Position numbers and translations under genes: made by a program. Positions 12,958 to 31,661 of a DNA stretch of 32,000 nt are shown in pieces (the first letter of the stretch is position 1; each line of letters starts with the position of its first letter). The notes beneath the pieces were generated by a model. That model did no database searches and was not told the origin of the DNA. It saw only the letters and a list, made by a program, of their open reading frames with translations. This stretch comes from an uncultured bacterium (GTDB lineage Bacteria; Auribacterota; JACPWU01): the NCBI GenBank assembly GCA_964640155.1, contig CAZXEQ010000001.1, forward strand, positions 276,403 through 308,402, written 5' to 3'.

Positions 12958-14784
12958 TCAATCCGCCCACTGATGTTGGCCACAATTCGCAAGAAATTCA
13001 TTGTATCTTCTTAGAATATCTTCTTCTCCATAGGTAGAAATAGAAGCTAGAAATCGATTGATATATTCTCTCACCGGCCGAGCCCTTGTTCTCCAGAAGG
13101 GAGTAAATGCGCTCAATTGACCTGAAATACTGGATTCCACAGCCACAATCCCAATGCTATAATCCGTACTTCCACTACTTTGTCTAGAGGAAATCAATGT
13201 CCTTAGAGGACAACTAATCATGCCATAGGGGCATAAAAGATATTGTTTTTCCCAATACAAAAGTTCATATCCCTGAGCCTCATCTGTCCAATAACCTCCA
13301 TAAGCCCCAAACTCTGAAGTATCCCAATGAATCAGAAAGGGATTTGCACTAAATTCTTCGCGCAAACGAATGGAAAAATCACTGGAAGCCGAATACCCAT
13401 AATTTGCTAATTCAGCTGGCGTCATCCAATGAGTTCTGAAAAAAAGTCGCTTTGCTTCCTCACCTGACAACCTTCTTCCTGTTTCATCCACTGGAGAAAA
13501 AGGATAATATCCATCAATAGAATAGATAATATCGCTATGATCGAGCATACGTGTTCCCGGCCTTATCCATCGAAATATCAATCCCTGATGTCCTGCAAAA
13601 TTACCAAGCCTTCCAGCAGCTCCAAAATTAAAAATATTTCTTACGGGAATATTAATACTTCGACATAAATCATAGAATAAATTAGAGACGGCAGGACAAC
13701 CTGTTGGTGCAAAAATTCCTCTGGAGATGCTTGTACTCCCATCACGCGCTGTAAAAGTTCTTGTCTCTTGTCTAAGACGATCCTTCAAGAAATTATGAGT
13801 CATATAATACTCAATCGTATTTTCAGGAGATAACGTGAAACCACTCCCATGCATGACATTTTGTGCAAACCAAAGGGTAAGATTTTCAAGAGTCTCTTCC
13901 TCAGTAGAGCCTAAAAGGTTCACATGTAGGCTAGAGTTTCTTCCAGTGATAAAGTTGTAGCCATCGCGAGGATCTCCTAAAAGTCCTATTCCTCTCGCAA
14001 ACGGATTATTTGCACGATGAGAAAGTTGAAAATCACGATGAGGGCGAATATGCTCGGGATAACCTACTAATCTATAATAATCTTCCCTCGAACGACCTTC
14101 TGAACTTCTATAGGCATCAACAATTCTACTGTGATAGCGATCAGAAGATAGAAGTTCAGCCAATTCATCTTCTGGGAGAGCAAAGATCGACCAAGAAAAA
14201 TGCCCCATCGCTTCATGCCAGAGAACACACGCACAATGAGCCAAATAGGTATCTAAAGCTTCATCCTCTGTTAAATACATAATAGGATTAAATGAAAGTC
14301 CTCCAGCAGCCCAAGTCTGTTGATTCATATTATTTCTAGGATTGGGTAAATGTATTCCAAGATTTGGATCTCTATTGAGCATTTTTTGAAAGAACTCGTT
14401 TAAACGGTCTTTCCATTCATGAGGCCAATAATCATAAGATAGATGTGCCCCTGTCGCTGTTTCCCAAATAATTTGACGACGAAGTTCAGGATGAGTGCAC
14501 AAACGTTCGTCTAAAGTTCCAACTGAAGAATAAAGAGTTAAACAACCTCCTTCTGTAGCTGGAACAATCACAGGACGTGCACCTTCTGGAGTTGCATCTG
14601 GCGGAGGAAAATAAATGGATTCTTGGGGTTTGATATTAAAAAGATCTGTCAACTTTTGAGGAGTTTGGTCATATGATTTATCTTTGTAATCCTGTCCTTC
14701 CAAGGAAGTTATCACAAAAAAACTAAATAGAATCAAAAGGGTATTGAGAGAAATACGAAGTGGACTGGTTGTAAAAGCCTTCAT
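12958..14784 (-). CDS. Secreted hypothetical protein with a possible transglutaminase-like Cys-His-Asp core
   Basis: 608 aa with signal peptide (LLILFSFFVITSLEG). TGCPAVSNLFYDLCRSINIPVR (Cys363), GHQGLIF (His399) and LDHSD (Asp415) have the spacing typical of transglutaminase-like cysteine protease folds. The rest is unrecognised. Confidence 0.6.
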   Translation of the reverse strand: MKAFTTSPLRISLNTLLILFSFFVITSLEGQDYKDKSYDQTPQKLTDLFNIKPQESIYFPPPDATPEGARPVIVPATEGGCLTLYSSVGTLDERLCTHPELRRQIIWETATGAHLSYDYWPHEWKDRLNEFFQKMLNRDPNLGIHLPNPRNNMNQQTWAAGGLSFNPIMYLTEDEALDTYLAHCACVLWHEAMGHFSWSIFALPEDELAELLSSDRYHSRIVDAYRSSEGRSREDYYRLVGYPEHIRPHRDFQLSHRANNPFARGIGLLGDPRDGYNFITGRNSSLHVNLLGSTEEETLENLTLWFAQNVMHGSGFTLSPENTIEYYMTHNFLKDRLRQETRTFTARDGSTSISRGIFAPTGCPAVSNLFYDLCRSINIPVRNIFNFGAAGRLGNFAGHQGLIFRWIRPGTRMLDHSDIIYSIDGYYPFSPVDETGRRLSGEEAKRLFFRTHWMTPAELANYGYSASSDFSIRLREEFSANPFLIHWDTSEFGAYGGYWTDEAQGYELLYWEKQYLLCPYGMISCPLRTLISSRQSSGSTDYSIGIVAVESSISGQLSAFTPFWRTRARPVREYINRFLASISTYGEEDILRRYNEFLANCGQHQWAD

Positions 14785-18106: not shown

Positions 18107-21100
18107 ATGTTTATCAATCATCATAAGTCTGCATCTACTGGAGCCGCCCTGGTTCTCACCGTGGGAATGCTTGCCCTTTTGACTTTGCTTGCCGTTGCTT
18201 TTGTAACACTCACACGAACTGAAGAAAAAATGAGTCGTTCATCTATTTATAGATGCCAAGCTCGAGCCATTGCTTCTGCAGGTCTTCATTATGCCATTGC
18301 CATTCTTCAAAAAGATCTACACGACGACAAAGCTGCAACAACTTTAACAGATCCTCAAATGTTGGATTCTTTCGATGAAGAATGGTCGACACTTTTTCTG
18401 GGAGCAGATATTCAACTAAGTACTTATGATGCTCGAATCTCTCGATGGATTTACATTCGAAAAACAACGGATCCAGACAGTCCCATCGTGGGTCGATTTT
18501 CTATTTTAATTCAAGATGAGGCAAGTAAGATCAATATCAATACAGCTGGAATAGGCCATCAAAACGAAGGTTGTAGCACCCATGAAATTGATTTGGGCGA
18601 CATCCCTGGGATTGGCGTTGCCTTAAGAGATGATATTGTCAACTATCGCAATGGTGCTAACACAGTTCCGGGTTCAAATGGTTCAGGCCTCACTCTTTAT
18701 TTAGCAGATGATAACAACAATACAACCCCGCTCAAAAAAAATAATATTGACGATGATGCAGATACTGCAACAGAGGGAATAGACAGTCTGGACTCCGATG
18801 AAGGGCAAGATAACGGTGACCCGAGTGAATTCGACCCAGAATTTCCGTATGGAGACGACAGACCTTTCACAGACATTGAAGAATTGGAAGCCATTCCTGG
18901 AATCGGTAACAACATTGTAAAAGCAGCAAAAAACTATGCCACAATCTGGAGCTATGATCTAAATCAATACTGGAGTAAAGAAACTCAAAGTTGGAACAAA
19001 AAAATTAATTTAAATCATTTTCTTTCTACAGGTCAACTTTACGGACTTGATTTGACTGCCACATCCAAACTTCATCGCTTGGCAGCTAACATCATAGATT
19101 ATAGCGACTGCGATATTTACCCCACTTTCACTACTTCGGATAAGGACAATCCTATTTCAAGCAATTCCTATCTCGGGATTGAAGGATTACAATTCAATGA
19201 AATCATGACTCAAACAGCGGCCATCATCCGAGAAAATAATGCCCATCATGTCAATCGTACAAGCGCTTGGCACCCTCGCTCAACAGATGTAGCCTACGAT
19301 GAAGCAGATGAAGGACAAGTCGGGACATGGAGTTGGCCTTGGGACAATGCAAATTACAATGTCACGATTCAGATTGAAGCAAGTACAACCGAAACAACAG
19401 CACCTATCAGCTATGTTATCGAAGGTGTCTCCGGAACCATTGATCCTCCAGCTACGAGCAGTGGTCCTATTCCCATCACCATTACTGGTGGAGAAATTAA
19501 TTTAACACTCACAGCAGCTCAAGACCCAACAACGCCTCCTCAAAAATCTTCTTTTGATAAGATAAAAATATCTGGTTTAGGGAAATATATTGAAATCATT
19601 AATATCAGCCAGCAAGGCATTTCTTTTGATACAGGAGATGATGATGCATGGAGACTTTTCTTCAATCCATCGCTTGTCTCCCCTGTCGATGATGGTCTTC
19701 CTACCAAAGTTGTTGGGGATTCTTATTTGTCGCTTGCCTCCGCCCTCCATCCCTCTACTTCTATTACTCTGAATGGAATAGACGAGAATGTTCCTACTCA
19801 TGATCCACCCAACTATGACTATTTAATCATCGCAGACAGTCTTTACGCATTAGATGCACTGCATGGATCTAGCGACGACGGATCTTGGTCAAAAACGGAA
19901 TCTGAACCCGGAAAAGTTTTAGTTCTTCCAGATCTTCTCTCTCATCTTCTTGAAGGAACAGATTTGGTTTTAACTGACTGGAAAAATAATGTAATCGCAT
20001 ATGCTCCGTCTTCGAATGAAAAATTTAATATCACTGCGTACGATACATCTTCAACAACGTCTTATGCCTCTTTTTCTCGCATTTCTGCCGTCAATCAACA
20101 AAATGCCTGGTTGATTACAACAAGTACAAGTCCTGGGACAAAAAATTTCAATGCCATTAATTCAGATAGTGGAACAGACAACCTTTTCTGGAAAGTTAAA
20201 GATCGTTCATTCGCGAATCTAGGTGAATTAGGAGATGTTTTTTTAGGAACCAGTAACAATGCAACGCATGACATTGAAACCAGCTATAGCCCTCTGTATT
20301 TTTCTAGAATTACTTTGTCTTCCAAAAGAATTGAAGCAGAGGACGCTGATATGCCTTTACCCTGGAATGCTCAAGAAATATCTTTCGAAAATGATGGAAC
20401 GACACGCTATCTTGCTCCTGGAACATCGGGAGGATGGATATGGAACTGGACTTTTAATCCCACTAACACTTTACCGGATATTGATAAACCTTTTCGTCTT
20501 CCTGTCAACAACACCACATTTGATCTACTTGTTTACGGACAATTTCTTTATCATTTTGATTCACCTATGGGAATTCATCGAAATCCTAAACCCAATCATG
20601 GAGTGAGCCTACCATCTGTCACCATATCAGGAAACAACATCAATTTTCCAATCTATGCAAATGGTTTGGCCCCAAAATTAGATTATATTATTCTGACTCC
20701 CGAGCCCTATACTTGGGGAAAAATCAATATCAATACAGCTTCCAGACAAACTTTAAAGGCCTTACCAGGCATAAGCACATCACTGGCCAATCATATCCTC
20801 GCCTATCGACAAGGAAATTCCGGGCCCTTTAACCAAATTCAAGAAGTCACAGAAGTTTCTAATATTGGGGAAACAACGTTTAAGCCCATTTCCAATCTTA
20901 TTACCGTCAGAAGCGATACCTTTCGTATTCTCGTTAAAGGCCAACAAGTTATGGATATGAATGAAGATAACACCATCGATTCTAATGAAATTATGTCCAC
21001 AATCACTTTAGATGCCATTATAGACAGAAATCCGTCTGGGCAAAGGCCTAACACCAACGATCAATATCAGATTAAGAGTTTAAAACATGAGTACTCCTAA
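18107..21100 (+). CDS. Giant GspK-like minor pseudopilin (paralog 1, 997 aa) with inserted beta-sandwich/LTD-like modules
   Basis: GspK-type N-terminus lacking Glu+5 (STG|AALVLTVGMLALLTLLAV). IQDEASKININTAG + IPGIGVALRDDIVNYR, and a second GKININTAS..LKALPGIS..LANHILAYR helix-hairpin-helix pair. C-terminal ..LITVRSDTFRILV... as in T2SS protein K. About 650 extra residues compared with typical GspK. Confidence 0.75.
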   Translation: MFINHHKSASTGAALVLTVGMLALLTLLAVAFVTLTRTEEKMSRSSIYRCQARAIASAGLHYAIAILQKDLHDDKAATTLTDPQMLDSFDEEWSTLFLGADIQLSTYDARISRWIYIRKTTDPDSPIVGRFSILIQDEASKININTAGIGHQNEGCSTHEIDLGDIPGIGVALRDDIVNYRNGANTVPGSNGSGLTLYLADDNNNTTPLKKNNIDDDADTATEGIDSLDSDEGQDNGDPSEFDPEFPYGDDRPFTDIEELEAIPGIGNNIVKAAKNYATIWSYDLNQYWSKETQSWNKKINLNHFLSTGQLYGLDLTATSKLHRLAANIIDYSDCDIYPTFTTSDKDNPISSNSYLGIEGLQFNEIMTQTAAIIRENNAHHVNRTSAWHPRSTDVAYDEADEGQVGTWSWPWDNANYNVTIQIEASTTETTAPISYVIEGVSGTIDPPATSSGPIPITITGGEINLTLTAAQDPTTPPQKSSFDKIKISGLGKYIEIINISQQGISFDTGDDDAWRLFFNPSLVSPVDDGLPTKVVGDSYLSLASALHPSTSITLNGIDENVPTHDPPNYDYLIIADSLYALDALHGSSDDGSWSKTESEPGKVLVLPDLLSHLLEGTDLVLTDWKNNVIAYAPSSNEKFNITAYDTSSTTSYASFSRISAVNQQNAWLITTSTSPGTKNFNAINSDSGTDNLFWKVKDRSFANLGELGDVFLGTSNNATHDIETSYSPLYFSRITLSSKRIEAEDADMPLPWNAQEISFENDGTTRYLAPGTSGGWIWNWTFNPTNTLPDIDKPFRLPVNNTTFDLLVYGQFLYHFDSPMGIHRNPKPNHGVSLPSVTISGNNINFPIYANGLAPKLDYIILTPEPYTWGKININTASRQTLKALPGISTSLANHILAYRQGNSGPFNQIQEVTEVSNIGETTFKPISNLITVRSDTFRILVKGQQVMDMNEDNTIDSNEIMSTITLDAIIDRNPSGQRPNTNDQYQIKSLKHEYS

Positions 21101-21204: not shown

Positions 21205-21753
21205 ATGCAACCAAAGCGAAGTCTTAGGATAAGTGTTTCAGCTTTCACAGTCATTGAAATGCTTATTGTTATTTCAGTTATTTCTATTCTTGCAGGTATT
21301 TTACTTCCGGCTATTCATTCTGCTCAGAAAAAAGCAAAAATTGCAAAAACTCAGGCTGTCATCGATTCTATCACGATCGCTCTCAAACAATATCAAACAG
21401 ATTTTGGAGCTTACCCATCGGCTGACATTCCAGGCGTTTCAGGAGAAACTTCCGCTGAATGCGCCTACTATTACACAGCCGCAACATTTGTAGCAGGTGA
21501 AAATAGTAATGAAATCTCAGCAGGCCCCTATATGGAATTTCGGCAAAAAGATAGAAAATCAACCAGTAGAACCGCTGACCTATTGGGAGATGGCACAAGC
21601 AATGATACGCTTTATCAAGTGATTGATTCTTGGGGAAACCCTTTAATTTATACTCAACCGGGCACCAACAATTCTAGTTCTTTTGATCTGTACTCCTATG
21701 GGCCAAATGGTACAGCAGGAGGAAGCCCTGATGATGACATTAAGAATTGGTAG
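21205..21753 (+). CDS. gspG: Type II secretion major pseudopilin GspG-like
   Basis: Prepilin motif SA|FTVIEMLIVISVISILAGILLPA, then AK..QAV.D...I..AL..Y..D.G.YPS, and C-terminal DSWGNPLIY..PG....FDLYSYGPNG.AGG..DDI.NW, closely matching GspG family conservation. Confidence 0.85.
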   Translation: MQPKRSLRISVSAFTVIEMLIVISVISILAGILLPAIHSAQKKAKIAKTQAVIDSITIALKQYQTDFGAYPSADIPGVSGETSAECAYYYTAATFVAGENSNEISAGPYMEFRQKDRKSTSRTADLLGDGTSNDTLYQVIDSWGNPLIYTQPGTNNSSSFDLYSYGPNGTAGGSPDDDIKNW

Positions 21754-22348
21754 AAAAACAAACCATCGATTTCTAGGACAATCTGGGGGCTTCACACTCA
21801 TTGAACTCCTCGCTGTAATTACAATTATTGGATTACTTGCACTATTGGGCGTCACCACATTTTCAAAATTTGGAAGCAATATTCGACTTAAAAGTGCGGC
21901 AGATCAAATTGCAAGTACCTTGCGTTTGGCTAGAGATTTGGCCGTTACTCAAAATAAAACAATACGAGCCACCATTTATCCTAGAAGAGCAAGTCCTCCC
22001 AATTGTATCGTTTTAACAGATTCAGGAGTTCAGATAGACAAGCCTTGGATTGCTTCTCCCTTGATTGAAATCGCAGACATAAATGGTTCTTCTAGCTCTA
22101 CAACTATAGACATTGATTTTTCCCCTTATGGAACCGCAAGCAGTAACTCTATTCATATCATTCAAAAAGGAACATTGATTTCAGGAAGTGCTTATAGCCC
22201 TTCAGGCTCGTACACAAGCGCCAACAAAAGCGAGCGCGTCAAGTGTTATACCCTCACAACAGATAACAATACAGCAAGAACACAAATCTATGCTTATGGG
22301 AGAAATGCGCCATGGGATACGGACGATTTAAGCGCATCACCGCCATAA
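21731..22348 (+). CDS. GspH/FimT-like minor pseudopilin
   Basis: The in-frame ATGATG at 21731 overlaps the gspG stop. Leader MMTLRIGRKTNHRFLGQSGG|FTLIELLAVITIIGLLALLG, then ...AADQIASTLRLARDLAV.. typical of GspH-class pseudopilins. The track start at 21683 is probably too far upstream. Confidence 0.7.
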   Translation: MMTLRIGRKTNHRFLGQSGGFTLIELLAVITIIGLLALLGVTTFSKFGSNIRLKSAADQIASTLRLARDLAVTQNKTIRATIYPRRASPPNCIVLTDSGVQIDKPWIASPLIEIADINGSSSSTTIDIDFSPYGTASSNSIHIIQKGTLISGSAYSPSGSYTSANKSERVKCYTLTTDNNTARTQIYAYGRNAPWDTDDLSASPP

Positions 22349-22923
22349 AAAGGGATGCTGTTCCTCAAAGTACGTCCTCTATAACCGCGGGTGACGCTCG
22401 GCGGGGTGTCCCATCGAGCGCAACTTTTCCTGAGCACGATGAGGCTGACGAGCGGCAGGCCCCGCTACTTTTTCAAGATACACCCTTTAATATAGACCAT
22501 CTTAAAAAGTTAGAGAGACAAAAGACAGGTGGCTTCACTTTGGTTGAGATTGTAGTTGCTCTGGGACTTTTAGCCTTGGGCATTCTGGGAATTCTTTCGC
22601 TTTTCCCTGTAGGCTTAGACGCTCAAAAAAGGGCCTTGGATTATTCAAATCTAACTAATTTAGCAGAATGGAAAATGGCCGATATCGCTTACAAAAGTCA
22701 TTTGACAGGCTCCCTTAACAGTCTGACCGCTGCTACAAGTTATCCGAATTCTGGAGTTACTTCTTTTGATCAAAACAAAAAATATTCGTGGCATTATTAT
22801 GTTTCCAAACCCTATTCTGGCACTCTTGACAATCTTTATAGAGTTGATTTAGCGATTTATTCCGTCAGTGACACAACAAATCCTATTGAAAAGGTGGTGA
22901 GTTATCTTGAACTTCCTCAATAA
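22312..22923 (+). CDS. GspI-like minor pseudopilin (prepilin-type N-terminal methylation domain); start codon uncertain
   Basis: QKTGG|FTLVEIVVALGLLALGILGILSLFP, with predicted cleavage after 22533. The only in-frame ATG/GTG/TTG upstream is ATG 22312 (GGAG SD). That gives an unusually long 74-aa leader which reads through RNA element copy 3. Assigned as I-like by small size and position. Confidence 0.6.
   Translation: MGYGRFKRITAIKRDAVPQSTSSITAGDARRGVPSSATFPEHDEADERQAPLLFQDTPFNIDHLKKLERQKTGGFTLVEIVVALGLLALGILGILSLFPVGLDAQKRALDYSNLTNLAEWKMADIAYKSHLTGSLNSLTAATSYPNSGVTSFDQNKKYSWHYYVSKPYSGTLDNLYRVDLAIYSVSDTTNPIEKVVSYLELPQ
22367..22471 (+). ncRNA. Unclassified GC-rich structured RNA element, copy 3 (79-nt core), between the GspH-like stop and the mature GspI-like coding sequence
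   Basis: Core 22387-22465, the same length as copy 2. P1 is GCGGG/CCCGC. P2 is CGCUCG (22395-400) with CGAGCG (22449-54). P3 is UCCCAUCG/CGAUGAGG. The loop is AGCGCAACUUUUCCUGAGCA. Compensatory changes relative to copies 1 and 2 occur in P1, P2 and P3. Confidence 0.6.
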
Positions 22924-23764
22924 CATATTGTCATGCGTCGTGCGTTATACGTCGAGCGTAAAAAGATATATTCCCTCAAGAACCACGCATCACGCATCAC
23001 GTATCACGCACAACGGTTTCTCAATGATTGAGTTACTGAGTGCTCTCGCTATTTTTAGCATCATGGGCCTCGCCCTTTATATTGTTTTTGATAGGGCCAA
23101 TCAAGTGTGGAAACATGGAGAATATAAGTCTGATCAATATCAAAATGCCCGACTCGCATTAGACACCATGTCACGAGAACTGACTTCTTGCTTGATTGGA
23201 ACAGGTGGGCCCACTTCTTTTCAAGATAACACAAATAAACGTCCTTATCTGTGGTCACTGGATAATTCACAGACTATTTCAGGACAAACTTATGATCGTG
23301 ATGAAATCTATTTTACTTTTGTAAGAGCCAACACCATTTATGAAGTTGGCTATTCTATTGATGATCAAAGTAATAGTAACTGCAAAGATGATATTTTGAG
23401 AAGGGCCTATACCTCTGGACTTTCAAGTGGCACAGATTTTGATATTGCAACAACAGATTTTGGATCCAATGATGATTTTGCGTTTAAAGTCACAGATTTG
23501 GATATCAAATTTATTTATAAAGACTCTTCTGGAAATTATCAAAAGGCAAATGTATGGGATACACGCATGGGTTATTTGACAGGAGGAGGAACCACTACCT
23601 CTGGCACCACCATTGACGATGGGCAACTACCGGATTGGATTGAAATCTCCATGCGTATTGTCGATCAGGAAACCCTTAATAAAAACAATGGTAATCCTGC
23701 AAAAGCTGATCGAAAAGAGTTCAAAACACTTATTCCCATGAATCAAAGGAGATTTTCCAGATGA
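22907..23764 (+). CDS. GspJ/PilW-like minor pseudopilin
   Basis: NG|FSMIELLSALAIFSIMGLALYIVFDRANQVW....ARLALDTMSRELTS, as in GspJ-class proteins. TTG start at 22907 follows AAGGTGGTGA; alternatives are TTG 22928 and GVG-frame GTG 22940. The stop overlaps the next gene's ATG (ATGA). Confidence 0.7.
   Translation: MNFLNNILSCVVRYTSSVKRYIPSRTTHHASRITHNGFSMIELLSALAIFSIMGLALYIVFDRANQVWKHGEYKSDQYQNARLALDTMSRELTSCLIGTGGPTSFQDNTNKRPYLWSLDNSQTISGQTYDRDEIYFTFVRANTIYEVGYSIDDQSNSNCKDDILRRAYTSGLSSGTDFDIATTDFGSNDDFAFKVTDLDIKFIYKDSSGNYQKANVWDTRMGYLTGGGTTTSGTTIDDGQLPDWIEISMRIVDQETLNKNNGNPAKADRKEFKTLIPMNQRRFSR
22933..23011. repeat. Inverted pair of heptamer arrays (RTGCGTN on the left, CACGYAT x4 on the right) at the gspI/gspJ junction, inside the gspJ-like leader-coding region
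   Basis: Left arm is ATGCGTC GTGCGTT ATACGTC GAGCGTA (22933-60). Right arm is CACGCAT CACGCAT CACGTAT CACGCAC (22984-23011). The arms pair as periodic 5-bp blocks (18 of 27 positions complementary). Confidence 0.7.
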
Positions 23765-26658
23765 AAATAGTCGACCCTTTGAAAGAAAAAAATTCTCAAG
23801 GCATCGCTCTGATTCTTGTCATGGGGACTCTTGCACTACTCACAGTTCTTGCAGTTTCTTTTACCACATTGATGCGCCATGAAGAAAAATCTAGCCGGGG
23901 ATCATTTCAATTTATTGAAACTCGTGAGCTTGCTACGGCCGGACTTCAATACGCCATCTCTATTTTAACAAAAGATTTAAATGACGATCAAACTTCTAAT
24001 CAACTTTATGATGCTTTTGATGAGGATTGGATTACCCTTTTTACAGGAACAAGTGTTGATTTAGACCAAGACGGAACTTCAGACTCACGATGGATTAACA
24101 TTCATGAAAATGGAATTCTGATCGGCCGTTATGCCATATGCATTCAGGACGAAGCTGGGAAAGTCAATATCAACACAGCCGCTTCAACCTCTCAAAATGA
24201 AGGATGGTCTCCTTATGAAACCAACATGGCTGTTTTGCCCGGTTTAAGCTCAACACTTGCGAGTAATATTCGTAACTATCGGTATGGAGCCAATACTGTC
24301 CCAGGGCTGAACTCCAGTCAACTCGCACCCGATGGGGATGACGATGAAACCTCACTTCCCTTTCGTAATGACGGCATTGACAACGATGGAGATGGATCTA
24401 TCGATGAAATTACTGAAGGAGAAGATGATCCTATTGAATTTAATCCTGAAATTCCCTATGGAGATGATCAACCTTACTCCTCTATTGAAGAATTAGATAA
24501 AGCCAGTAGCAGCTTAACTTCAAGTAATGTTAAAACGCTTAAAAATTATACAACTATCTCCAGTTATGATCTCAATCAATATTGGAATGGGGCTTGGTCT
24601 AAGAAAGTTAATTTAAATCATCTTCTCACCACAGACTCTCTTTACAATTTAGTTCAGGGATCTTCTGGATCTAATTCATTCAGACTTACAGCCAATATGA
24701 TTGACTCTTTGGATCGAGATAATTATCCCACAGCAAAATGGTCTTCCAGTGCTTCATTCAATTCAACTAATGCTTATATCGGGCTAGAAGGACTTCAATT
24801 TAATGAAGTCATGAGACAAACCAAATGGTTTGCTGGAGAAAACAGTACGGCTGATCGTACAGGTTCTGGGTGGAGTGCTTTTTCAACAGAAGACAGGGGA
24901 AATGAAGGAACAACAGGCCAATGGTCCTGGCCATGGGATAATGGAACTTATAACATGAGAATTTATGCGCGTACAGAGGCTGCAACCCCTGTCACTTATA
25001 CGTTGGAAACACTTTCAGGATCTGTAACAACACTTCCCACCCAGGTGAACAATGTGACTGTTTCAGGAGGCAGAATTAATTTACAACTTCTTGCCCCTAC
25101 TCAATCGGGCGGAGGACAACAATATTCCTATTTTGACAAAATTGAAGTTCAGGCTGGGAAATACATTGAAATCATCAACATCAGTCAAAGAGCTGTCACT
25201 GTTGATAAAACAGGAAGCGATTCTTGGAATCTTTATTTCGGAGGGTCTCTCAGTGCCCCCTCTGCTGATGGACTTCCTGCAAGACAAAGTGGAGGAACAG
25301 CTCTTGCCCTATCTGGAGCAACTTATCCCACCAGTGGAGATATTACTTTATGGTCGGCAGCTCCTACCACCTATCGCTATTTAATTATTGCAGACAGTCT
25401 TTATGGACTCGATGCCACTTATGGCAATAATAATGGGTCATGGTCCGGTGGATCTGCTCCAGAATCAGAAAGACTTTTAGTTCTTCCACAACTTTTGTCT
25501 AATCTCAATTCTGGCACAGACCTCACACTCACAGACTCTCAAGGTAATGTTATTGCGTATGCACCTGCTACAGCGCAATTTAATATTCTAGGATTTGATG
25601 ATGCTACCCTGGCTACTTATCAAAGTTTTTCTAGATCTTCACCTGTCAATCAACAAAGTGCATGGACCACTTCTACAGCCACAAACGAACAAACACCCGG
25701 AAGAAATAATAATGGAGTGACACAAAGTAATACGGGAGAAAATAAATATTGGTTGATCAAAGATCGCCCCTTTGCCAGCATCGGAGAATTAGGAGATGTA
25801 TTTTTAGGAACTCAAAATAATCAGACTTATGATTTGGAAACATCTGGAAATTATCTGGATAAAATAACCCTAGCAGCTAAACGATTGGAAGCTGAAAATG
25901 CAAACTCTATTTCCTGGAGTAACTCAGAAACAGCTTCTGATCAGGATGGAACCACACGCTATGTTGCTTCCAATAGTAATCGCACACTTGCAAGATGGGA
26001 TTGGACGTTTGACATCAGCATTACTACCGACATCAGCAAACCTTTTCGACTTAAAAGTAATACTTCTTATGACATGATTGCATATGGGCAATTCGCAAGC
26101 AATTTTGAATCCCCCAGTGGAACATCTCGTTGGGTAAAACCTAATCACAGCTCTGCTCTAGACTCTCAAACGGTTGGTAATCTCATAACCAACGGTATTC
26201 GTTTCGATGCTTATGGAAATACTTCCGTAATTCCTAAATTTGATTTTTTAATTTTAACTCCAGACCCTTATACCTGGGGCAAAATCAATATTAATACAGC
26301 TTCCAGCACTGTTCTTCAAAGTTTAAAAGGTATTAGTAGTACGCTTGCCTCAAACATTGTCAGTTATCGCCCTTTATCGAATAGCAATCCTTTTAATACC
26401 ATACAAGAGTTGATGTCCGTTTCAGGGATTGATGAAACGGAGTTTAAGCCAATTGCCAATCTTATTACTGTACGTAGTGACGTTTTTAGAGTCATTGTAA
26501 GAGCTGAGAAAATTGTCGATGCTAATAACAACGGTACCGTTGATTCTGGGGAAAATATTTCAACCATTACATTAGATGCGATTGTAGATCGTAATCCTTC
26601 CGTCCGTGATCCTGGTACAACGGATAAACACAGAATTGAATCATTGAGATATGAGTAA
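23761..26658 (+). CDS. Giant GspK-like minor pseudopilin (paralog 2, 965 aa) with inserted beta-sandwich/LTD-like modules
   Basis: NSQG|IALILVMGTLALLTVLAV, IQDEAGKVNINTAA, GKININTASSTVLQSLKGISSTLASNIVSYR, LITVRSDVFRVIV. Collinear with paralog 1 along its whole length. AAGGAGA SD. Translationally coupled to the gspJ-like gene. Confidence 0.75.
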   Translation: MKIVDPLKEKNSQGIALILVMGTLALLTVLAVSFTTLMRHEEKSSRGSFQFIETRELATAGLQYAISILTKDLNDDQTSNQLYDAFDEDWITLFTGTSVDLDQDGTSDSRWINIHENGILIGRYAICIQDEAGKVNINTAASTSQNEGWSPYETNMAVLPGLSSTLASNIRNYRYGANTVPGLNSSQLAPDGDDDETSLPFRNDGIDNDGDGSIDEITEGEDDPIEFNPEIPYGDDQPYSSIEELDKASSSLTSSNVKTLKNYTTISSYDLNQYWNGAWSKKVNLNHLLTTDSLYNLVQGSSGSNSFRLTANMIDSLDRDNYPTAKWSSSASFNSTNAYIGLEGLQFNEVMRQTKWFAGENSTADRTGSGWSAFSTEDRGNEGTTGQWSWPWDNGTYNMRIYARTEAATPVTYTLETLSGSVTTLPTQVNNVTVSGGRINLQLLAPTQSGGGQQYSYFDKIEVQAGKYIEIINISQRAVTVDKTGSDSWNLYFGGSLSAPSADGLPARQSGGTALALSGATYPTSGDITLWSAAPTTYRYLIIADSLYGLDATYGNNNGSWSGGSAPESERLLVLPQLLSNLNSGTDLTLTDSQGNVIAYAPATAQFNILGFDDATLATYQSFSRSSPVNQQSAWTTSTATNEQTPGRNNNGVTQSNTGENKYWLIKDRPFASIGELGDVFLGTQNNQTYDLETSGNYLDKITLAAKRLEAENANSISWSNSETASDQDGTTRYVASNSNRTLARWDWTFDISITTDISKPFRLKSNTSYDMIAYGQFASNFESPSGTSRWVKPNHSSALDSQTVGNLITNGIRFDAYGNTSVIPKFDFLILTPDPYTWGKININTASSTVLQSLKGISSTLASNIVSYRPLSNSNPFNTIQELMSVSGIDETEFKPIANLITVRSDVFRVIVRAEKIVDANNNGTVDSGENISTITLDAIVDRNPSVRDPGTTDKHRIESLRYE

Positions 26659-26674
26659 AAAGCTATAACGCGAA

Positions 26675-27652
26675 CTACTGCCTTGAAAGCATCTCACAAG
26701 CAGTTTGAAATGCTTGTTTGACCTCTAAATCCTTCATACATTCATGTGTTTGAATACGGCAAAATCCCTCCATACATGGAGAACATGGGATTTCGAGTCG
26801 CACAACACGATGGAGACAACCATAAGGGCCATAAATTTTAGGGTCGGTCGGACCAAAAATAGCCAAAACAGGACAATTGACGGCCACAGCTAAATGCATG
26901 GGGCCCGAATCATTTGCAATAAAAAGTTTTGCTTTCTTGAGGAGAGCCGCAACTTGCATTAAAGAAAGTTCTCCTGTTAATTGAATGACTTCCGAAGAAA
27001 AAACCTTCTTAAACTCCTCACGATCTTCTTTGGGACCCACAACCACCATCGTAAGAGAATATTTTTCTTTCAATTGCTCAGCCAATTGAGCAAATTTCGA
27101 AGCTTCCCATCTTTTTAACCGATTGGCAGCCCCTGGCCCTAAAACAATATAGGAAGAACCAACGCTCATTCCTTTTTTTAAAAGAATTTCTTGCATTTCT
27201 ACCCCAAAAGATTCAAGTCGAGGTAATGCAAATGTAGCAGGGCCCTCAATTCCCAAGGTTTTCAAACGCGCCAGATGTCTAAATACAGCATGACCTTCTA
27301 CTTTCTTTTTCAAAATAGGTGTTGAGAAACGAGGACGTATAAAAATAGGAATGGCCGTATTTTTTAAATCAATCACCAAATCAAATTTTTCTTTTTTGAG
27401 CTGCATCATCAAAACCAGTTTCTCTCTAAGGCGCGTATGTTTGTCATAGATAATTGTTTTTTCTAGATACGGATGGTTTTCAAAAATCTCTTGAGCCCGA
27501 GGTCCTACCATTGCTGTAATACTCGCGTTCTTAAAAAAAAGACGTGTTAGATGAAGGCTGGGGGTCGTTAAAATCGCATCCCCAATATTGCTGAGCGAAA
27601 TAAAAAGGATTTTTTTTATTTCTCGAGGATCGATGTGTTTCATACAGGACAA
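26675..27652 (-). CDS. Glycosyltransferase family 9 (LPS heptosyltransferase-like)
   Basis: ILFISLSNIGDAILTTPSL N-terminal motif and NDSGPMHLAVAVNCPVLAIFGPTDP C-terminal motif, both typical of GT9. Confidence 0.85.
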   Translation of the reverse strand: MSCMKHIDPREIKKILFISLSNIGDAILTTPSLHLTRLFFKNASITAMVGPRAQEIFENHPYLEKTIIYDKHTRLREKLVLMMQLKKEKFDLVIDLKNTAIPIFIRPRFSTPILKKKVEGHAVFRHLARLKTLGIEGPATFALPRLESFGVEMQEILLKKGMSVGSSYIVLGPGAANRLKRWEASKFAQLAEQLKEKYSLTMVVVGPKEDREEFKKVFSSEVIQLTGELSLMQVAALLKKAKLFIANDSGPMHLAVAVNCPVLAIFGPTDPKIYGPYGCLHRVVRLEIPCSPCMEGFCRIQTHECMKDLEVKQAFQTACEMLSRQ

Positions 27653-29733
27653 TCTTCATGCTTGATGATTTTCTGAATTTCCTGAAAAACCTGATTGACA
27701 CTTATTTTTTCAAGACAATCATGCGTTACTATTTTGCAGATAGGAGAATAACACGGAGCGCAAGGGACCGGATGCGTTAAAACTTTTACATTACCAGGGG
27801 GAACATGCCTCAAAGGCTCTGTAGGGCCAAACAAAGCAATAGCAGGAGTTCCTACGGCCGCTGCCAAATGAAGTGGCGCAGAATCTCCTCCAATCCAAAG
27901 TTGACATCTTCTCAAAAATTCTGACAGCACACCCAAATCCAATTGCCCAATAAGATTTAAATATTTTATTTCTAATCCTGACAAAAGTTCCTGAGCATCT
28001 TTTTCATCTTCTTTTCCCCCAATAAAAACAGGGATAGCTTTCAATCGCTGAGAAACAAGCTTTGCCAACTCTCTAAAATGTTCAAACCCCCATCGTTTGG
28101 TTTGCCATCGGACATTCGAAAAAGGGAAAAGAGCAATCAAAGTATTGCTGGATGAGAGCTGATGAACTTTAAAAAAATCTTCAACCCATTCTTTTTGTTG
28201 TGGAGAATTCCACATTTCTAAATAAACATCTTGATGAGAGATTCCTAAAAGCTGAAGCAATCGATTTTGACTTTCAATAGGGCCTACATCTTTTTGATAA
28301 GGAATGTGATGTGTCAGAAGAAATCCCCTTCCCTGGCGACCGAATCCCACTCGAACAGGGATACGACTTAAAAAACCTAAAAGATGAGATTTTTCGTTAT
28401 TTTGAAGATCAATCAAAATATCAAATCGCCGAATTTTGATTTCATGCAAAAGCTTAAAAAAGCTCTTTAGATTAACCTTTTTAGGAAAAATTATTTTTTC
28501 TTCAAGATACGGACAATGTTCGACCACTTTTTGATAAGCCTCTTGAACCAAAAGGCTCACATGCGAATTAGGATAGTTTTTTTTTAGAGCACGAAAGGTG
28601 GGGCTTGCAAGAATAACATCTCCTAAAGCACTTGATTTAATCACAAGAATTCTCGGGATTTTCAAAAGCTCTTCATAAACCTCTAAAGTTCTTTTGACCA
28701 TTAGATTTAAATTAAACTTTTCTTCGACAGAATGTCTTGCCTCTTGTATGACAGAGCTCAGGCTTTCTGGATTTTTTAAAACTTGAATCATTTGTTCCGC
28801 CAAAGTCTGCGCGTCTTGGGGAGGAACAAGCCAACCATTCTTTCTATGCTCAATGATATCTACCACACCTCCAACACGTGTGGCTATGACAGGCACACCC
28901 ACAGCTTGAGCTTCTACCAAAACTCGACCAAACGCCTCCGGTGTAGTCGTCGCCAAAACCAAAAGATCCAAATCCTTCATCGCCTCATAGACATTCTGTG
29001 TGCCAGGAAGAAAATCGACATACGAAGAAAGTCCTAAATTTTCTCGAAGCTTTAGAAGGCCCTGATAATAATTTTGTTTTGAGGCAGGCGCATCTCCAAT
29101 GACAAAACCCTTTGCATCAGGAAAAGTCTTAATCACTTCCTTCATAGCCATTAAAAAAAATTCATGACCTTTGAGAGGCGTAATACGACCTAAAATTCCA
29201 ATATGAGGAGTCTTAAAATTGATTGATTTAGAATAAAAAGGAAATTTCTTTAAATCAACCCCTCTTGGAATTAACCGAATTCTTTCATTAGAAACACCAA
29301 AATTATGAAGCAAATGTTCACGAATCGCTTCAGAAACCGCAATAACTCTTTCTCCCCATCCCATGACACGACTTCCCCAGTGAGGACGATAATAACCATG
29401 CGCTGTCGTCACAAATCTTGCAGAAGTTCCTCGAACAGCAAGCCATGCAACCCAAGCTGGTGCACGAGATCGGGCATGCACAATTTCAATTTTTTCATTT
29501 TGAATAATTCTTTTCAAAGCTCGCGATGAAGACCAAATACTCCAAAGAGATTTACGATGAACAGGAAGTTCAATATGACGAACCCCCACTTTTTCGAGAG
29601 ACTGGACCAAAGGTCCTCCCGCACTAACAACAAAAGCTGAATGTCCTAACCGGACAAGCTCACATGCCAAATCCAGCGTGCCTGTTTCAACACCCCCCAT
29701 TTTCATTTGAGGAACAATTTGTAAAATCCTCAT
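27640..29733 (-). CDS. Fusion protein: N-terminal GT4 glycosyltransferase plus C-terminal GT9 heptosyltransferase-like domain
   Basis: aa 1-360 carry GT4 hallmarks (MRILQIV....GG.E, EAFGRVLVEAQAVGVPVIATRVGG). aa 360-697 carry GT9 hallmarks (ILVIKSSALGDVILASPTF, GGDSAPLHLAAAVGTPAIALFGPT). Confidence 0.8.
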   Translation of the reverse strand: MRILQIVPQMKMGGVETGTLDLACELVRLGHSAFVVSAGGPLVQSLEKVGVRHIELPVHRKSLWSIWSSSRALKRIIQNEKIEIVHARSRAPAWVAWLAVRGTSARFVTTAHGYYRPHWGSRVMGWGERVIAVSEAIREHLLHNFGVSNERIRLIPRGVDLKKFPFYSKSINFKTPHIGILGRITPLKGHEFFLMAMKEVIKTFPDAKGFVIGDAPASKQNYYQGLLKLRENLGLSSYVDFLPGTQNVYEAMKDLDLLVLATTTPEAFGRVLVEAQAVGVPVIATRVGGVVDIIEHRKNGWLVPPQDAQTLAEQMIQVLKNPESLSSVIQEARHSVEEKFNLNLMVKRTLEVYEELLKIPRILVIKSSALGDVILASPTFRALKKNYPNSHVSLLVQEAYQKVVEHCPYLEEKIIFPKKVNLKSFFKLLHEIKIRRFDILIDLQNNEKSHLLGFLSRIPVRVGFGRQGRGFLLTHHIPYQKDVGPIESQNRLLQLLGISHQDVYLEMWNSPQQKEWVEDFFKVHQLSSSNTLIALFPFSNVRWQTKRWGFEHFRELAKLVSQRLKAIPVFIGGKEDEKDAQELLSGLEIKYLNLIGQLDLGVLSEFLRRCQLWIGGDSAPLHLAAAVGTPAIALFGPTEPLRHVPPGNVKVLTHPVPCAPCYSPICKIVTHDCLEKISVNQVFQEIQKIIKHEDCPV

Positions 29734-31661
29734 GATTTTACCTGCGAGGGAGACTCAAATAATCTTAAAATTTCTTGCTGAACTAAGAGGGTTTCCTGAG
29801 AATCTATTTCTTTTTTACCCATTTCATTTTTAAGATTTTCTAAAATAGGAGCAAGATCTTTAGGCCAACATCGTCGAATTCGACCTGACTTTTCAAAAGC
29901 ATTTAATGTTATTTCATATTTTAAGGGACGAGAACTCTTCTGAGGCAAGCGTATCGTAATAACAAAACATCCTGAATGAATAGCTTCCATGATCATGGAA
30001 AAACTATCCTCTGTCACCAACACTATCTCCGCAAGTCCTAAAACTCCAGGGATTGGATTTTCAGGATAATCTTTAGCACATAAGAGATGGACATGCTTTT
30101 GTTGTCCCAATTTTCTTTCAAAAATCTGCTCTATTTCTAAAGGCGTACGCCGAGAAGTTGCCATTAGAATTTGTGTAGAATTTTTCTCACATATGTTTAA
30201 GAGAAAATCTACCAAAACTTCCATCTCAGACGCCTTCATTTCTAAGCGCTCTGAATCTCCACCGATTAAAACCCCTATTTTTCTTCCAACATCTAAACTT
30301 AATTTATCTGAAAGAATTTTTGTAGACCTATCCGCTATTTCCTTTGAAACAAGTGTAGGCATACCCTGGAGGATTAAAACATTTTTTGCATTTAAACTCG
30401 AATATGAATCATGCGTAGGCAAAACAACCAAATCAAATAATTTTTCTGGATGAGAAACTCCCGATTTCATTAACAGAACTGTTTTTGCTTCATAATAATG
30501 TTTCAAGAAAAAAGCAACCGGAGCACTCAGAGAGCCACAAGCTAAAATCAAAGAGGGAGACCAAATAGGTAATTGCTGAAGAGAATCTTTAGACAAACAC
30601 CAACGTAAAAGTTTCATCGAATGGAGCCCAAAAAATAGACTCAAGCTGACCATAAAACGATGAAAAGAAGATTTGAAGTGAATAAAACAAATATTCTTCT
30701 CCCAATCAGGAAACCCATTTGCAATTGCTAAAATTTGATTAAAATGTCCGGGCTTCCCATCATTTAAAAGCAGCATCTTCTTTTCATATCGAGTGATTTC
30801 TCCTGGAGGACGTGTTTTCCAACGACGATGAAGCCATAACCACTGAGAAGGATCTTCTCGAATAAAGTTTTCAAGAGATAGAGTAAATCTTTCCAAAACA
30901 ATTTTTTCCTGCTCATCTAGGCTTAATCCATCTAATCCTTCTGTTAAATCCTTCCCAATAAAAGCTCGATATTCCAGACGATCTGAGAGCCTACGTAAAA
31001 AGCCAGGTAAAATTGGGACTCCATATTTCAAACCTAAACGAATAATGCCAGTTGGAGTCGAAGCAAGCCTTCCAAAAAAAGGAGCAAAAGTCCCACGCAC
31101 TCCCCCATCCTGATCTACCAAAGCGCCCACCGTATGACCTTGATCAAAAGCTCCTACAATATGACGAATCTGTCCTTTGCTAATAACATTAACATTGTAA
31201 CGAGCACGAATCGACTGAATCCAATTTTGAACTTTTTTATTTTTAACATCACGTGCAACTACCGAGTTAATAAACCCCGCCCATCGACCTAATTTTGCTA
31301 AAAGCTCCCAGTTTCCAGAATGTCCTGTGAGAAAAAGAATCGCTTTCCCAGACTTTTTTGCCTTTTGAAGATGCTCATATCCTTCTTCAAATATATGATC
31401 GCGCCAAGCATGAGGATTTTTTTGAGACAAAATTAAAACTTCACATCCGACAAGAACTAAATTCTGAAAAACTCTTTTTGTAATATTACGAATCTGGTCT
31501 TGCGTATATTCAGGAAAAGCATTTCTCAAATTCGTAAAAGCAATGTTACGATGCTTTCGATCTATCCAATAAAAAATACACCCCAATCCCCTTCCCAATT
31601 TCATCAAGAAGGCTACAGGCGAGATTTTCGCCAAAAAATCAAGAAAATGGAGTAGGAACAT
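29730..31661 (-). CDS. Fusion protein: lipid A late acyltransferase (LpxL/HtrB family) plus C-terminal ELM1/DUF1022-like domain
   Basis: The N-terminal 290 aa contain ..NL..AFPE, the FLTGHSGNWELLA active-site H-x4-E/D motif and the ending ..P.QWLW.HRRWK. The C-terminal 350 aa resemble the ELM1/GtrOC1-type putative glycosyltransferase family (LLNDGKPGH.NQ..., VLIGG). Confidence 0.7.
   Translation of the reverse strand: MFLLHFLDFLAKISPVAFLMKLGRGLGCIFYWIDRKHRNIAFTNLRNAFPEYTQDQIRNITKRVFQNLVLVGCEVLILSQKNPHAWRDHIFEEGYEHLQKAKKSGKAILFLTGHSGNWELLAKLGRWAGFINSVVARDVKNKKVQNWIQSIRARYNVNVISKGQIRHIVGAFDQGHTVGALVDQDGGVRGTFAPFFGRLASTPTGIIRLGLKYGVPILPGFLRRLSDRLEYRAFIGKDLTEGLDGLSLDEQEKIVLERFTLSLENFIREDPSQWLWLHRRWKTRPPGEITRYEKKMLLLNDGKPGHFNQILAIANGFPDWEKNICFIHFKSSFHRFMVSLSLFFGLHSMKLLRWCLSKDSLQQLPIWSPSLILACGSLSAPVAFFLKHYYEAKTVLLMKSGVSHPEKLFDLVVLPTHDSYSSLNAKNVLILQGMPTLVSKEIADRSTKILSDKLSLDVGRKIGVLIGGDSERLEMKASEMEVLVDFLLNICEKNSTQILMATSRRTPLEIEQIFERKLGQQKHVHLLCAKDYPENPIPGVLGLAEIVLVTEDSFSMIMEAIHSGCFVITIRLPQKSSRPLKYEITLNAFEKSGRIRRCWPKDLAPILENLKNEMGKKEIDSQETLLVQQEILRLFESPSQVKS

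Follow-up and report, generated by a model that had tools for sequence, protein, structure and literature searches.

A 32,000-nucleotide stretch of DNA from an uncultured bacterium of the Auribacterota (assembly GCA_964640155.1, contig CAZXEQ010000001.1, positions 276,403 to 308,402 of the forward strand; the whole of this stretch is referred to here as the window) encodes two giant proteins, K1 and K2, that resemble GspK, which is the tip minor pseudopilin in type II secretion systems (T2SS). The locus raises the question of what the additional sequence in these proteins is and what it would do at the end of a filament. Both proteins carry a block that appears to consist of a diverged lamin tail domain (LTD), split by a nested module and followed by a second one, the two modules being likely jelly rolls of the carbohydrate-binding module (CBM) type. 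In the explanation that we favour, and consider fairly probable, K1 and K2 are alternative GspK/PilX-class tip subunits of one type IV filament, with the grafted head binding an extracellular polymer.

K1 and K2 are GspK-like minor pseudopilins

The two large genes enclose four short pseudopilin genes in the order K1-G-H-I-J-K2, as follows (ORF, open reading frame):

18107..21100, plus strand: K1, giant GspK-like minor pseudopilin of 997 aa, equal to public protein P0017 (ORF; NCBIfam and Pfam)
21205..21753, plus strand: GspG-like major pseudopilin (Pfam T2SSG, 7.2e-14, and N_methyl)
21683..22348, plus strand: GspH-like minor pseudopilin (Pfam N_methyl and GspH)
22312..22923, plus strand: minor pseudopilin in the GspI position, start probably internal (N_methyl motif at aa 71-95)
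22907..23764, plus strand: minor pseudopilin in the GspJ position, 285 aa as an ORF against 246 aa in the public call (N_methyl motif at aa 36-58; L001 gene call)
23761..26658, plus strand: K2, paralogous giant GspK-like minor pseudopilin of 965 aa, equal to P0016, with the module order of K1 (T2SSK; 48% identity to K1 over the full length)

The ORFs in the I and J positions open far upstream of their prepilin motifs, and their true starts are probably internal.

K1 and K2 are GspK-like minor pseudopilins by homology and by gene order. The NCBIfam model T2SS_GspK (NF037980) matched K1 with E 6.8e-20 (71.8 bits) and K2 with E 2e-17 (63.6 bits), both below its cut-off of 130; Pfam T2SSK (PF03934) was matched by K2 with 26.2 bits, above the gathering score of 24.2, and by K1 with 22.9 bits, below it, and 13 of the 17 members of the family described below also match this model. 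HHH_3, T2SSK_1st and PilX_N were the other Pfam matches in the two proteins. Both have prepilin N-termini with Gly at -1 and a hydrophobic alpha1N segment, reading STG before AALVLTVGMLALL (as AALVLTVGMLALLTLLAV) in K1 and SQG before IALILVMGTLALLTVLAV in K2. Position +5 is Leu in both, so that Glu5 is absent, while the G, H, I and J neighbours have FT(L/V)IE with Glu5. K2 is the final gene, after G (T2SSG), H (GspH) and two N_methyl proteins, and K1 is an extra copy ahead of G; the order G-H-I-J-K is kept at the related loci L002, L011 and L012.

The Pfam models of the GspK alpha-domain are widely separated in K1: T2SSK_1st covers aa 221-281 and T2SSK begins only at aa 873 (aa 873-934), which places a block of ~590 aa between the two helix-hairpin-helix (HhH) subdomains of the alpha-domain. 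An Asp/Asn-rich stretch is found at aa 200-252 of K1 (~18704-18862) and aa ~190-236 of K2 (NDGIDNDGDGSIDE), with the family consensus DGIDNDxDGxxDE; it resembles calcium-binding loops and lies, much expanded, at the place of the DWID.D/GAED region of canonical GspK.

A probable lamin tail domain split by a nested module

An earlier note on this DNA, made from the sequence alone, had proposed that K1 and K2 contain a split LTD with a beta-sandwich nested in it and a CBM6/35-like module behind it. The layout that we arrive at, with structural evidence from AlphaFold2 (AF2) models, Foldseek and hhalign, is the following; pLDDT is the predicted local distance difference test score and HMM a hidden Markov model.

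19169..19207, plus strand: K1 putative LTD first strand, aa 355-367, YLGIEGLQFNEIM, apart from the rest of the LTD (hhalign to VVFNEI of outside LTDs; AF2 strand E12-18)
19208..19579, plus strand: K1 nested module, aa 368-491, probable CBM6/35/36-like jelly roll in the LTD strand1-strand2 loop (AF2, Foldseek, hhalign)
19580..20152, plus strand: K1 putative LTD remainder, aa 492-682 (GKYIEIINIS ... W.L ... YDYLIIAD ... DLVLTD..NVIAY ... SFSR ... W ... SPGTKN), with two internal expansions (hhalign, Pfam, P0013 match)
20153..20320, plus strand: K1 linker with short helices, aa 683-738, DRSFANLGELGDVFLG (low pLDDT; two short helices in AF2 models)
20321..20710, plus strand: K1 C-terminal module, aa 739-868, probable CBM6/35-like jelly roll, KRIEAEDAD ... 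LDYIILTPEP (AF2, Foldseek)
20717..20917, plus strand: K1 second HhH subdomain of the alpha-domain, aa 871-937, ComEA-like in sequence (Pfam HHH_3 2.9e-19; T2SSK 873-934)
24775..24813, plus strand: K2 putative LTD first strand, aa 339-351 (motif positions, splice)
24814..25155, plus strand: K2 nested module, aa 352-465, probably CBM-like (local nested-module HMM matches 350-465, E 4e-38)
25156..25716, plus strand: K2 putative LTD remainder, aa 466-652 (spliced K2 against Pfam LTD, E 0.017)
25879..26268, plus strand: K2 C-terminal module, aa 707-836, probably CBM-like (local C-terminal-module HMM matches 702-839, E 4e-49)

All eleven K1 segments quoted in the earlier note were present where it had placed them, as were the K2 blocks (nt 24790-25635 and 25879-26094). 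In the LTD part these are GLQFNEIM (aa 360-367), GKYIEIINISQQGISFD (aa 492-508), YDYLIIADS (aa 570-578), TDLVLTDWKNNVIAYAP (aa 618-634) and YASFSR (aa 653-658); in the insert, GTWSWPWDNANYNVTIQIEA (aa 406-425) and FDKIKISG (aa 483-490); and in the C-terminal module, KRIEAEDAD (aa 740-748), DGTTRYLA (aa 763-770), WIWNWTF (aa 777-783) and FDLLVYGQF (aa 805-813). The insertion after the first strand, put at about 120 aa, measures 124 aa (aa 368-491, between LQFNEIM at aa 361-367 and GKYIEIIN at aa 492-499). A G.EG.q.NE motif around LTD strand 1 is conserved throughout the family members, and local HMMs recover the same succession in every one of them: strand 1, nested module, the rest of the LTD, C-terminal module. 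The nested module is the region of lowest identity between K1 and K2 (36%, against 44-71% elsewhere).

On comparison of profiles, aa 355-367 and 492-682 of K1 are assigned to a diverged LTD whose strand1-strand2 loop holds an inserted domain and which has two smaller expansions besides. Against the Pfam LTD model (PF00932; profile length 109, gathering score 34.3 bits) intact K1 and K2 gave no match even at E <= 10. With the insert spliced out, K2 matched PF00932 and no other family (E 0.017, 15.9 bits, profile positions 8-103 of 109); K1 and K2 are thus below the Pfam LTD threshold whether intact or spliced. LTD was matched after splicing by 9 of 17 family members that have no LTD match when intact (best E 1.2e-5), and the only other Pfam family among the 17 spliced relatives was a single DUF (E 0.034). 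Distant relatives match LTD without splicing: P0015 with 41 bits, above the gathering score, P0014 with 23.9 and P0013 with 19.7, while P0022 carries a precomputed PF00932 label. The matches of these four begin only at profile position ~20-22, past the first strand, as fits a first strand that has been displaced.

A profile of the 17 spliced sequences (A5) was then aligned by hhalign with the two LTDs of unrelated proteins that had been collected, P0024 and P0025 (both PF00932). The probability was 96.2% and E 2.3e-9 over 134 columns (query 8-208 against LTD 6-153), with an alignment that begins at LQFNEIM/VVFNEIH, passes GKYIEIINIS/AEFIELYNQN and ends with the terminal TPGxxN; reversed, insert and C-terminal-module profiles used as controls against the same outside LTDs reached 0.1-0.2%. 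The strict-clade LTD profile matched P0013, which itself matches LTD, end to end at 462-651 (E 2e-17 in a 1.8-billion search space) and P0014, P0015 and P0022 only in patches, so it is hhalign and Pfam, and not HMM-to-sequence scores, that tie the region to canonical LTDs.

That the likeness to LTDs is convergent or due to chance, aa 355-682 forming some unrelated beta-sandwich, we regard as very improbable. Such a view could point to the lack of any Pfam match in K1 even when spliced, which counts against the LTD assignment, and to the absence of a lamin tail from the top 50 Foldseek matches of the model of aa 350-700; it could also cite searches of PDB sequences in which profiles for the middle region and the spliced LTD returned noise and no LTD, but this negative is without weight because a genuine bacterial LTD, run as a control, likewise retrieves no PDB LTD by sequence. 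It would have to account for the hhalign result with its clean controls, for LTD being the sole recurring Pfam match, and for the positionally equivalent regions of P0015 and P0022 being LTDs by Pfam's own scores.

Two predicted jelly-roll modules

The alignments were shallow (12-22 sequences), and the AF2 run on K1 aa 350-700 used one of 12 sequences. The resulting model is all-beta, with a mean pLDDT of 78.6 and a predicted template modelling score (pTM) of 0.80; the nested module within it has ~11 strands with pLDDT mostly 80-95. Foldseek searches of PDB with this model returned CBM6, CBM35, CBM36, CBM86 and MiXBM structures (7ehg, 2cdp, 7ay3, 1ux7 and 2w3j among them) at E 1.5e-4 to 1e-3 over 125-145 columns, with a target template modelling (TM) score of 0.5-0.6 and probability 1.0. 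These matches are assigned to the nested insert because of their aligned length and the relatedness of the insert to the C-terminal module. The top match of the same model was the head of the adhesin Epf (4ES8/4ES9; E 6e-5, ~317 columns), with a TM score of 0.22-0.25 and a root-mean-square deviation of ~15 A. In a Microbacterium xanthan lyase, MiXBM is the module that binds xanthan (PMC10881899).

For the C-terminal module (model of K1 aa 700-872) Foldseek placed MiXBM 7ehg (E 1.9e-4, target TM 0.57), CBM6 2cdo/2cdp, CBM35 2w1w/2vzp and Cry toxin domain III nearest. A PDB profile search with this module returned noise and no match, a negative discounted on the same ground as those for the LTD profiles. 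When the profile of the nested insert was aligned with that of the C-terminal module by hhalign, the probability was 94.9% and E 4.6e-8, indicating that both derive as paralogues from a single jelly-roll module. For the jelly-roll modules a viral fold search gave, in addition, tail-fibre and CBM-like matches only.

The nested and C-terminal modules are thus likely CBM6/35/36-type jelly rolls, the likeness, as judged from predicted models, being at the level of the fold only. The architecture proposed in the earlier note is borne out in its main lines, the split LTD by profile-profile alignment, by splicing and by the unspliced distant relatives, and the nested beta-sandwich and the following CBM6/35-like module by the predicted folds; LTD was recovered by profile but not among the leading fold matches, and the CBM type by fold but not as a sequence family.

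Distribution and variation of the family

Searched exhaustively by HMM with the middle region of K1/K2, 1.84 billion representative proteins yielded 15 relatives; a profile search of a 5.8-billion set added close paralogues and one Omnitrophota protein, and a word-seeded homologue search with the middle region found no relatives. The family is rare and occurs in Ca. Auribacterota and Omnitrophota genomes. Scanning of species-representative genomes showed an 83%-identical fragment in a Ca. Auribacterota metagenome-assembled genome (MAG) and more distant copies in other Ca. Auribacterota (including Ca. Auribacter fodinae), 'UBP3', unclassified MAGs and groundwater MAGs labelled Chlamydiae. Several of the family MAGs are labelled Chlamydiae/Chlamydiota; the closest species-representative genomes are labelled Ca. 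Auribacterota. P0017 and P0016, the public counterparts of K1 and K2, come from a contig of 621 kb. Public annotation of family members (P0002, P0021, P0022, P0005) reads only 'helix-hairpin-helix domain-containing protein' or 'hypothetical protein'.

In the closest relative (L011 673-9433; P0001 and P0018) the order K1-G-H-I-J-K2 recurs together with the downstream heptosyltransferase genes. In the N-terminal and LTD regions P0001 is nearer K1 and P0018 nearer K2, a pairing which indicates that the duplication is older than these two genomes. Two groundwater MAGs (L002, L012) have a single K in the order DnaJ-RsmE-G-H-I-J-K. At the Omnitrophota locus (L003 1-7665) a T2SSF gene and a gene for a protein of >3,150 aa (no Pfam match on record) precede the LTD-bearing GspK-like gene; pilins adjoin, and a Big-domain protein follows. 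The number of jelly rolls also varies, P0011 having two tandem nested copies (aa 374-508 and 541-650) and P0015 one ahead of LTD strand 1 (aa 321-412) and one nested (aa 446-568).

This variation bears on the view that the grafted block is structural, a cap or spacer governing filament initiation or length, or a secretin plug, with no external ligand. We think this unlikely: the GspK alpha-domain is without a known ligand, Ig-like and jelly-roll domains are frequent as spacers and no conserved CBM family signature is present, but two diverged paralogues stand side by side in at least two genomes, module copy number differs among relatives, and the nearest structural neighbours are binding modules and adhesin heads.

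A putative binding head at the filament tip

The filament to which K1 and K2 would belong could be a T2SS pseudopilus or else a fibre like a type IV pilus. Its subunits would be the GspG-like pilin and the minor pilins of the H, I and J positions, and either K1 or K2 would nucleate it jointly with those of the I and J positions. In the GspI-J-K complex as solved, the tip is crowned by the alpha-domain, which points away from the fibre, so that the block grafted here, predicted to be an Ig-like LTD hosting one jelly roll, a short helical linker and a second, paralogous jelly roll, should form a head of ~65 kDa at the very tip; by this analogy tip exposure may reasonably be expected. The head would most likely bind an extracellular polymer, most probably a glycan of detritus, of the biofilm matrix or of another cell, which would make the fibre an adhesin or capture device, and the two paralogues would supply two specificities. 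What the data show is the order of the genes, homology to GspK and to LTDs, the jelly-roll fold and the kinship of the two modules, and the point of insertion; exposure at the tip, ligand binding, the identity of the ligand and the alternative use of K1 and K2 are what we infer. The divergence of the nested module between K1 and K2 fits a surface under diversifying pressure and two specificities, and the closest structural relatives, namely CBMs, an adhesin head and phage tail fibres, support a binding head. Adhesion through modular minor pilins that present a lectin or vWA module is well established as a strategy (PMC8179133, PMC9934059); and for Ca. Auribacterota, inferred to live as fermentative heterotrophs, type IV pili have been proposed in attachment to detritus (PMC9324843).

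Several points weigh against a glycan-binding head. There are also jelly rolls and Ig-like domains with a purely structural role. For aa 700-872 confidence in the model is moderate (pLDDT 67.8, pTM 0.68). Neither module of K1, of K2 or of ten relatives matched a Pfam CBM family at E <= 10, so that no sugar-binding residues can be deduced. The 32-kb window contains no genes for a secretin, ATPase or platform protein, so the filament could be of either type and may or may not extend past the outer membrane; and bacterial LTDs themselves have no established role (PMC6085458).

The ligand could instead be extracellular DNA, captured for uptake or foraging by the LTD and the ComEA-like HhH as has been proposed for ComZ at the tip of the Thermus pilus. 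The idea is worth attention, and one of its grounds is the C-terminal HhH domain (K1 20717-20917; K2 26278-26481). In PDB sequence searches this domain matched EEPD1 with 60 bits (two repeats) and ComEA with 48 (8dfk) and 40 bits (8dss), well ahead of GspK (5vtm, 22.6 bits), and HHH_3 is matched with E 3e-19; canonical GspK, however, also has HhH-like subdomains and no known DNA binding. Extracellular nucleases, ExeM among them, contain LTDs; deletion of the ExeM LTD lowers activity in vitro, but DNA degradation in vivo can do without it (PMC6085458). A modular tip pilin that binds DNA has its precedent in ComZ (PMC8179133). Since the two largest added modules look like carbohydrate-binding modules and the window contains no competence genes, we hold DNA to be an unlikely ligand. 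A related scheme has a dynamic fibre with K1 and K2 as interchangeable heads, whose LTD, jelly rolls and ComEA-like HhH would catch DNA or acidic polysaccharide at the tip and reel it in for uptake. It strikes us as a little less likely again; if true, it would mean a polymer-foraging pilus in a fermentative uncultured phylum related to the Planctomycetes-Verrucomicrobia-Chlamydiae (PVC) group, and a first defined role for bacterial LTDs.

Genes around the pseudopilin operon

The operon has housekeeping flanks, with DnaJ and RsmE upstream and lipopolysaccharide (LPS)-core heptosyltransferases downstream. Directly 3' of K2 (26675-31661, minus strand) are genes for a heptosyltransferase (GT9), a GT4-GT9 fusion and a lipid A acyltransferase-ELM1 fusion. 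Relatives (L011, L013) show synteny for this set, as the groundwater MAGs do for DnaJ-RsmE; nothing evident ties these neighbours functionally to the pilin operon. No Pfam family was matched at E <= 0.01 by a 608-aa ORF (12958-14784, minus strand). Two internal ORFs, 20259-20606 and 25091-25384, lie out of frame within K1 and K2, respectively, and were rejected as genes.

These surroundings also concern the notion of a periplasmic cargo dock, by which the modules would hold glycosylated or tagged exoproteins on the pseudopilus tip of a classical T2SS, ready for the push of the piston. The major pseudopilin is of the T2SSG type, and the tip of the pseudopilus is considered to push exoproteins in the manner of a piston (PMC6211770); but neither T2SS core genes nor obvious exoprotein genes adjoin the operon, and our literature search found no precedent for CBM-mediated recognition of T2SS cargo. 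We rate this as quite improbable. The head on the fibre tip probably serves as an adhesin or polymer catcher.

Comparison with known systems

K1 and K2 share with GspK/XcpX, the tip minor pseudopilin of the T2SS (PDB 3CI0, 5VTM), a prepilin N-terminus without Glu5, a pilin core broken by an HhH alpha-domain, the position as final gene of a G-H-I-J-K cluster and matches to T2SSK, T2SSK_1st and NCBIfam GspK. They differ in being ~3x larger, with the LTD and two jelly rolls (~590 aa) between the HhH subdomains; in the presence of two paralogues, one before gspG; in scoring 71.8 against a cut-off of 130; and in an HhH that is nearer ComEA.

Bacterial LTDs (PF00932; ExeM/NucH nucleases) have the same order of motifs, INE, EfIElxN, W.l, a hydrophobic strand, L.d..g.viD, S..R and W...TPG..N, whereas in K1 and K2 the first strand is 124 aa away, there are further expansions of ~30 and ~20 aa, and the score stays under the gathering threshold. 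CBM6, CBM35, CBM36 and MiXBM (2CDP, 2W1W, 1UX7, 7EHG) have in common with the two modules a jelly roll of ~125-140 residues and, for the C-terminal module, an 'EAE' start and a terminal 'lDyi.L.P' strand; identity is 10-20%, however, with no Pfam or PDB sequence match. The head of the Epf adhesin of Streptococcus pyogenes (4ES8/4ES9) likewise joins a CBM-like to an Ig-like, fibronectin type III (FnIII), subdomain (PMC7846122), but the TM score is low, the arrangement of domains is another, with subdomains consecutive and not nested, and Epf is a cell-wall-anchored fibril and not a pilin.

A parallel in principle is offered by modular pilins, such as Streptococcus sanguinis PilB (vWA) and PilC (lectin), CofB of enterotoxigenic Escherichia coli (ETEC) and Thermus ComZ, in which the filament displays a binding module that one of its minor pilins carries as a graft. 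The tips of type IV filaments are in contact with the outside, and modular minor pilins are a known means to diversify that contact. IPR001322 we take to be the lamin tail domain entry. It is present in 6+1 pilins of a pilin census (Dataset S1 of PMC8179133), which also lists one pilin with a CBM6 entry; the same paper describes ComZ and GspK as having their extra domain within the pilin fold and not appended to it. K1 and K2 differ in having three modules within a GspK-class alpha-domain, one nested in another, all of them missed by standard domain scans of the intact protein. In our literature search no description was found of an LTD together with a pseudopilin, nor of GspK together with a CBM in this sense.

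Modular pilins being already documented, what is new is this architecture of three modules in a GspK alpha-domain, one nested in an LTD and invisible to routine annotation, in a rare family of uncultured phyla related to the PVC group, and the gain is an incremental one that brings no new principle. It indicates that ~65 kDa of binding-type modules can be mounted on the GspK alpha-domain as a scaffold, and gives a clean case of a domain nested in an LTD, where the nesting hides the LTD from routine annotation. It places the bacterial LTD in a context where a binding function could be probed, and suggests a way in which the uncultured Auribacterota and Omnitrophota may become attached to particles or to partners.

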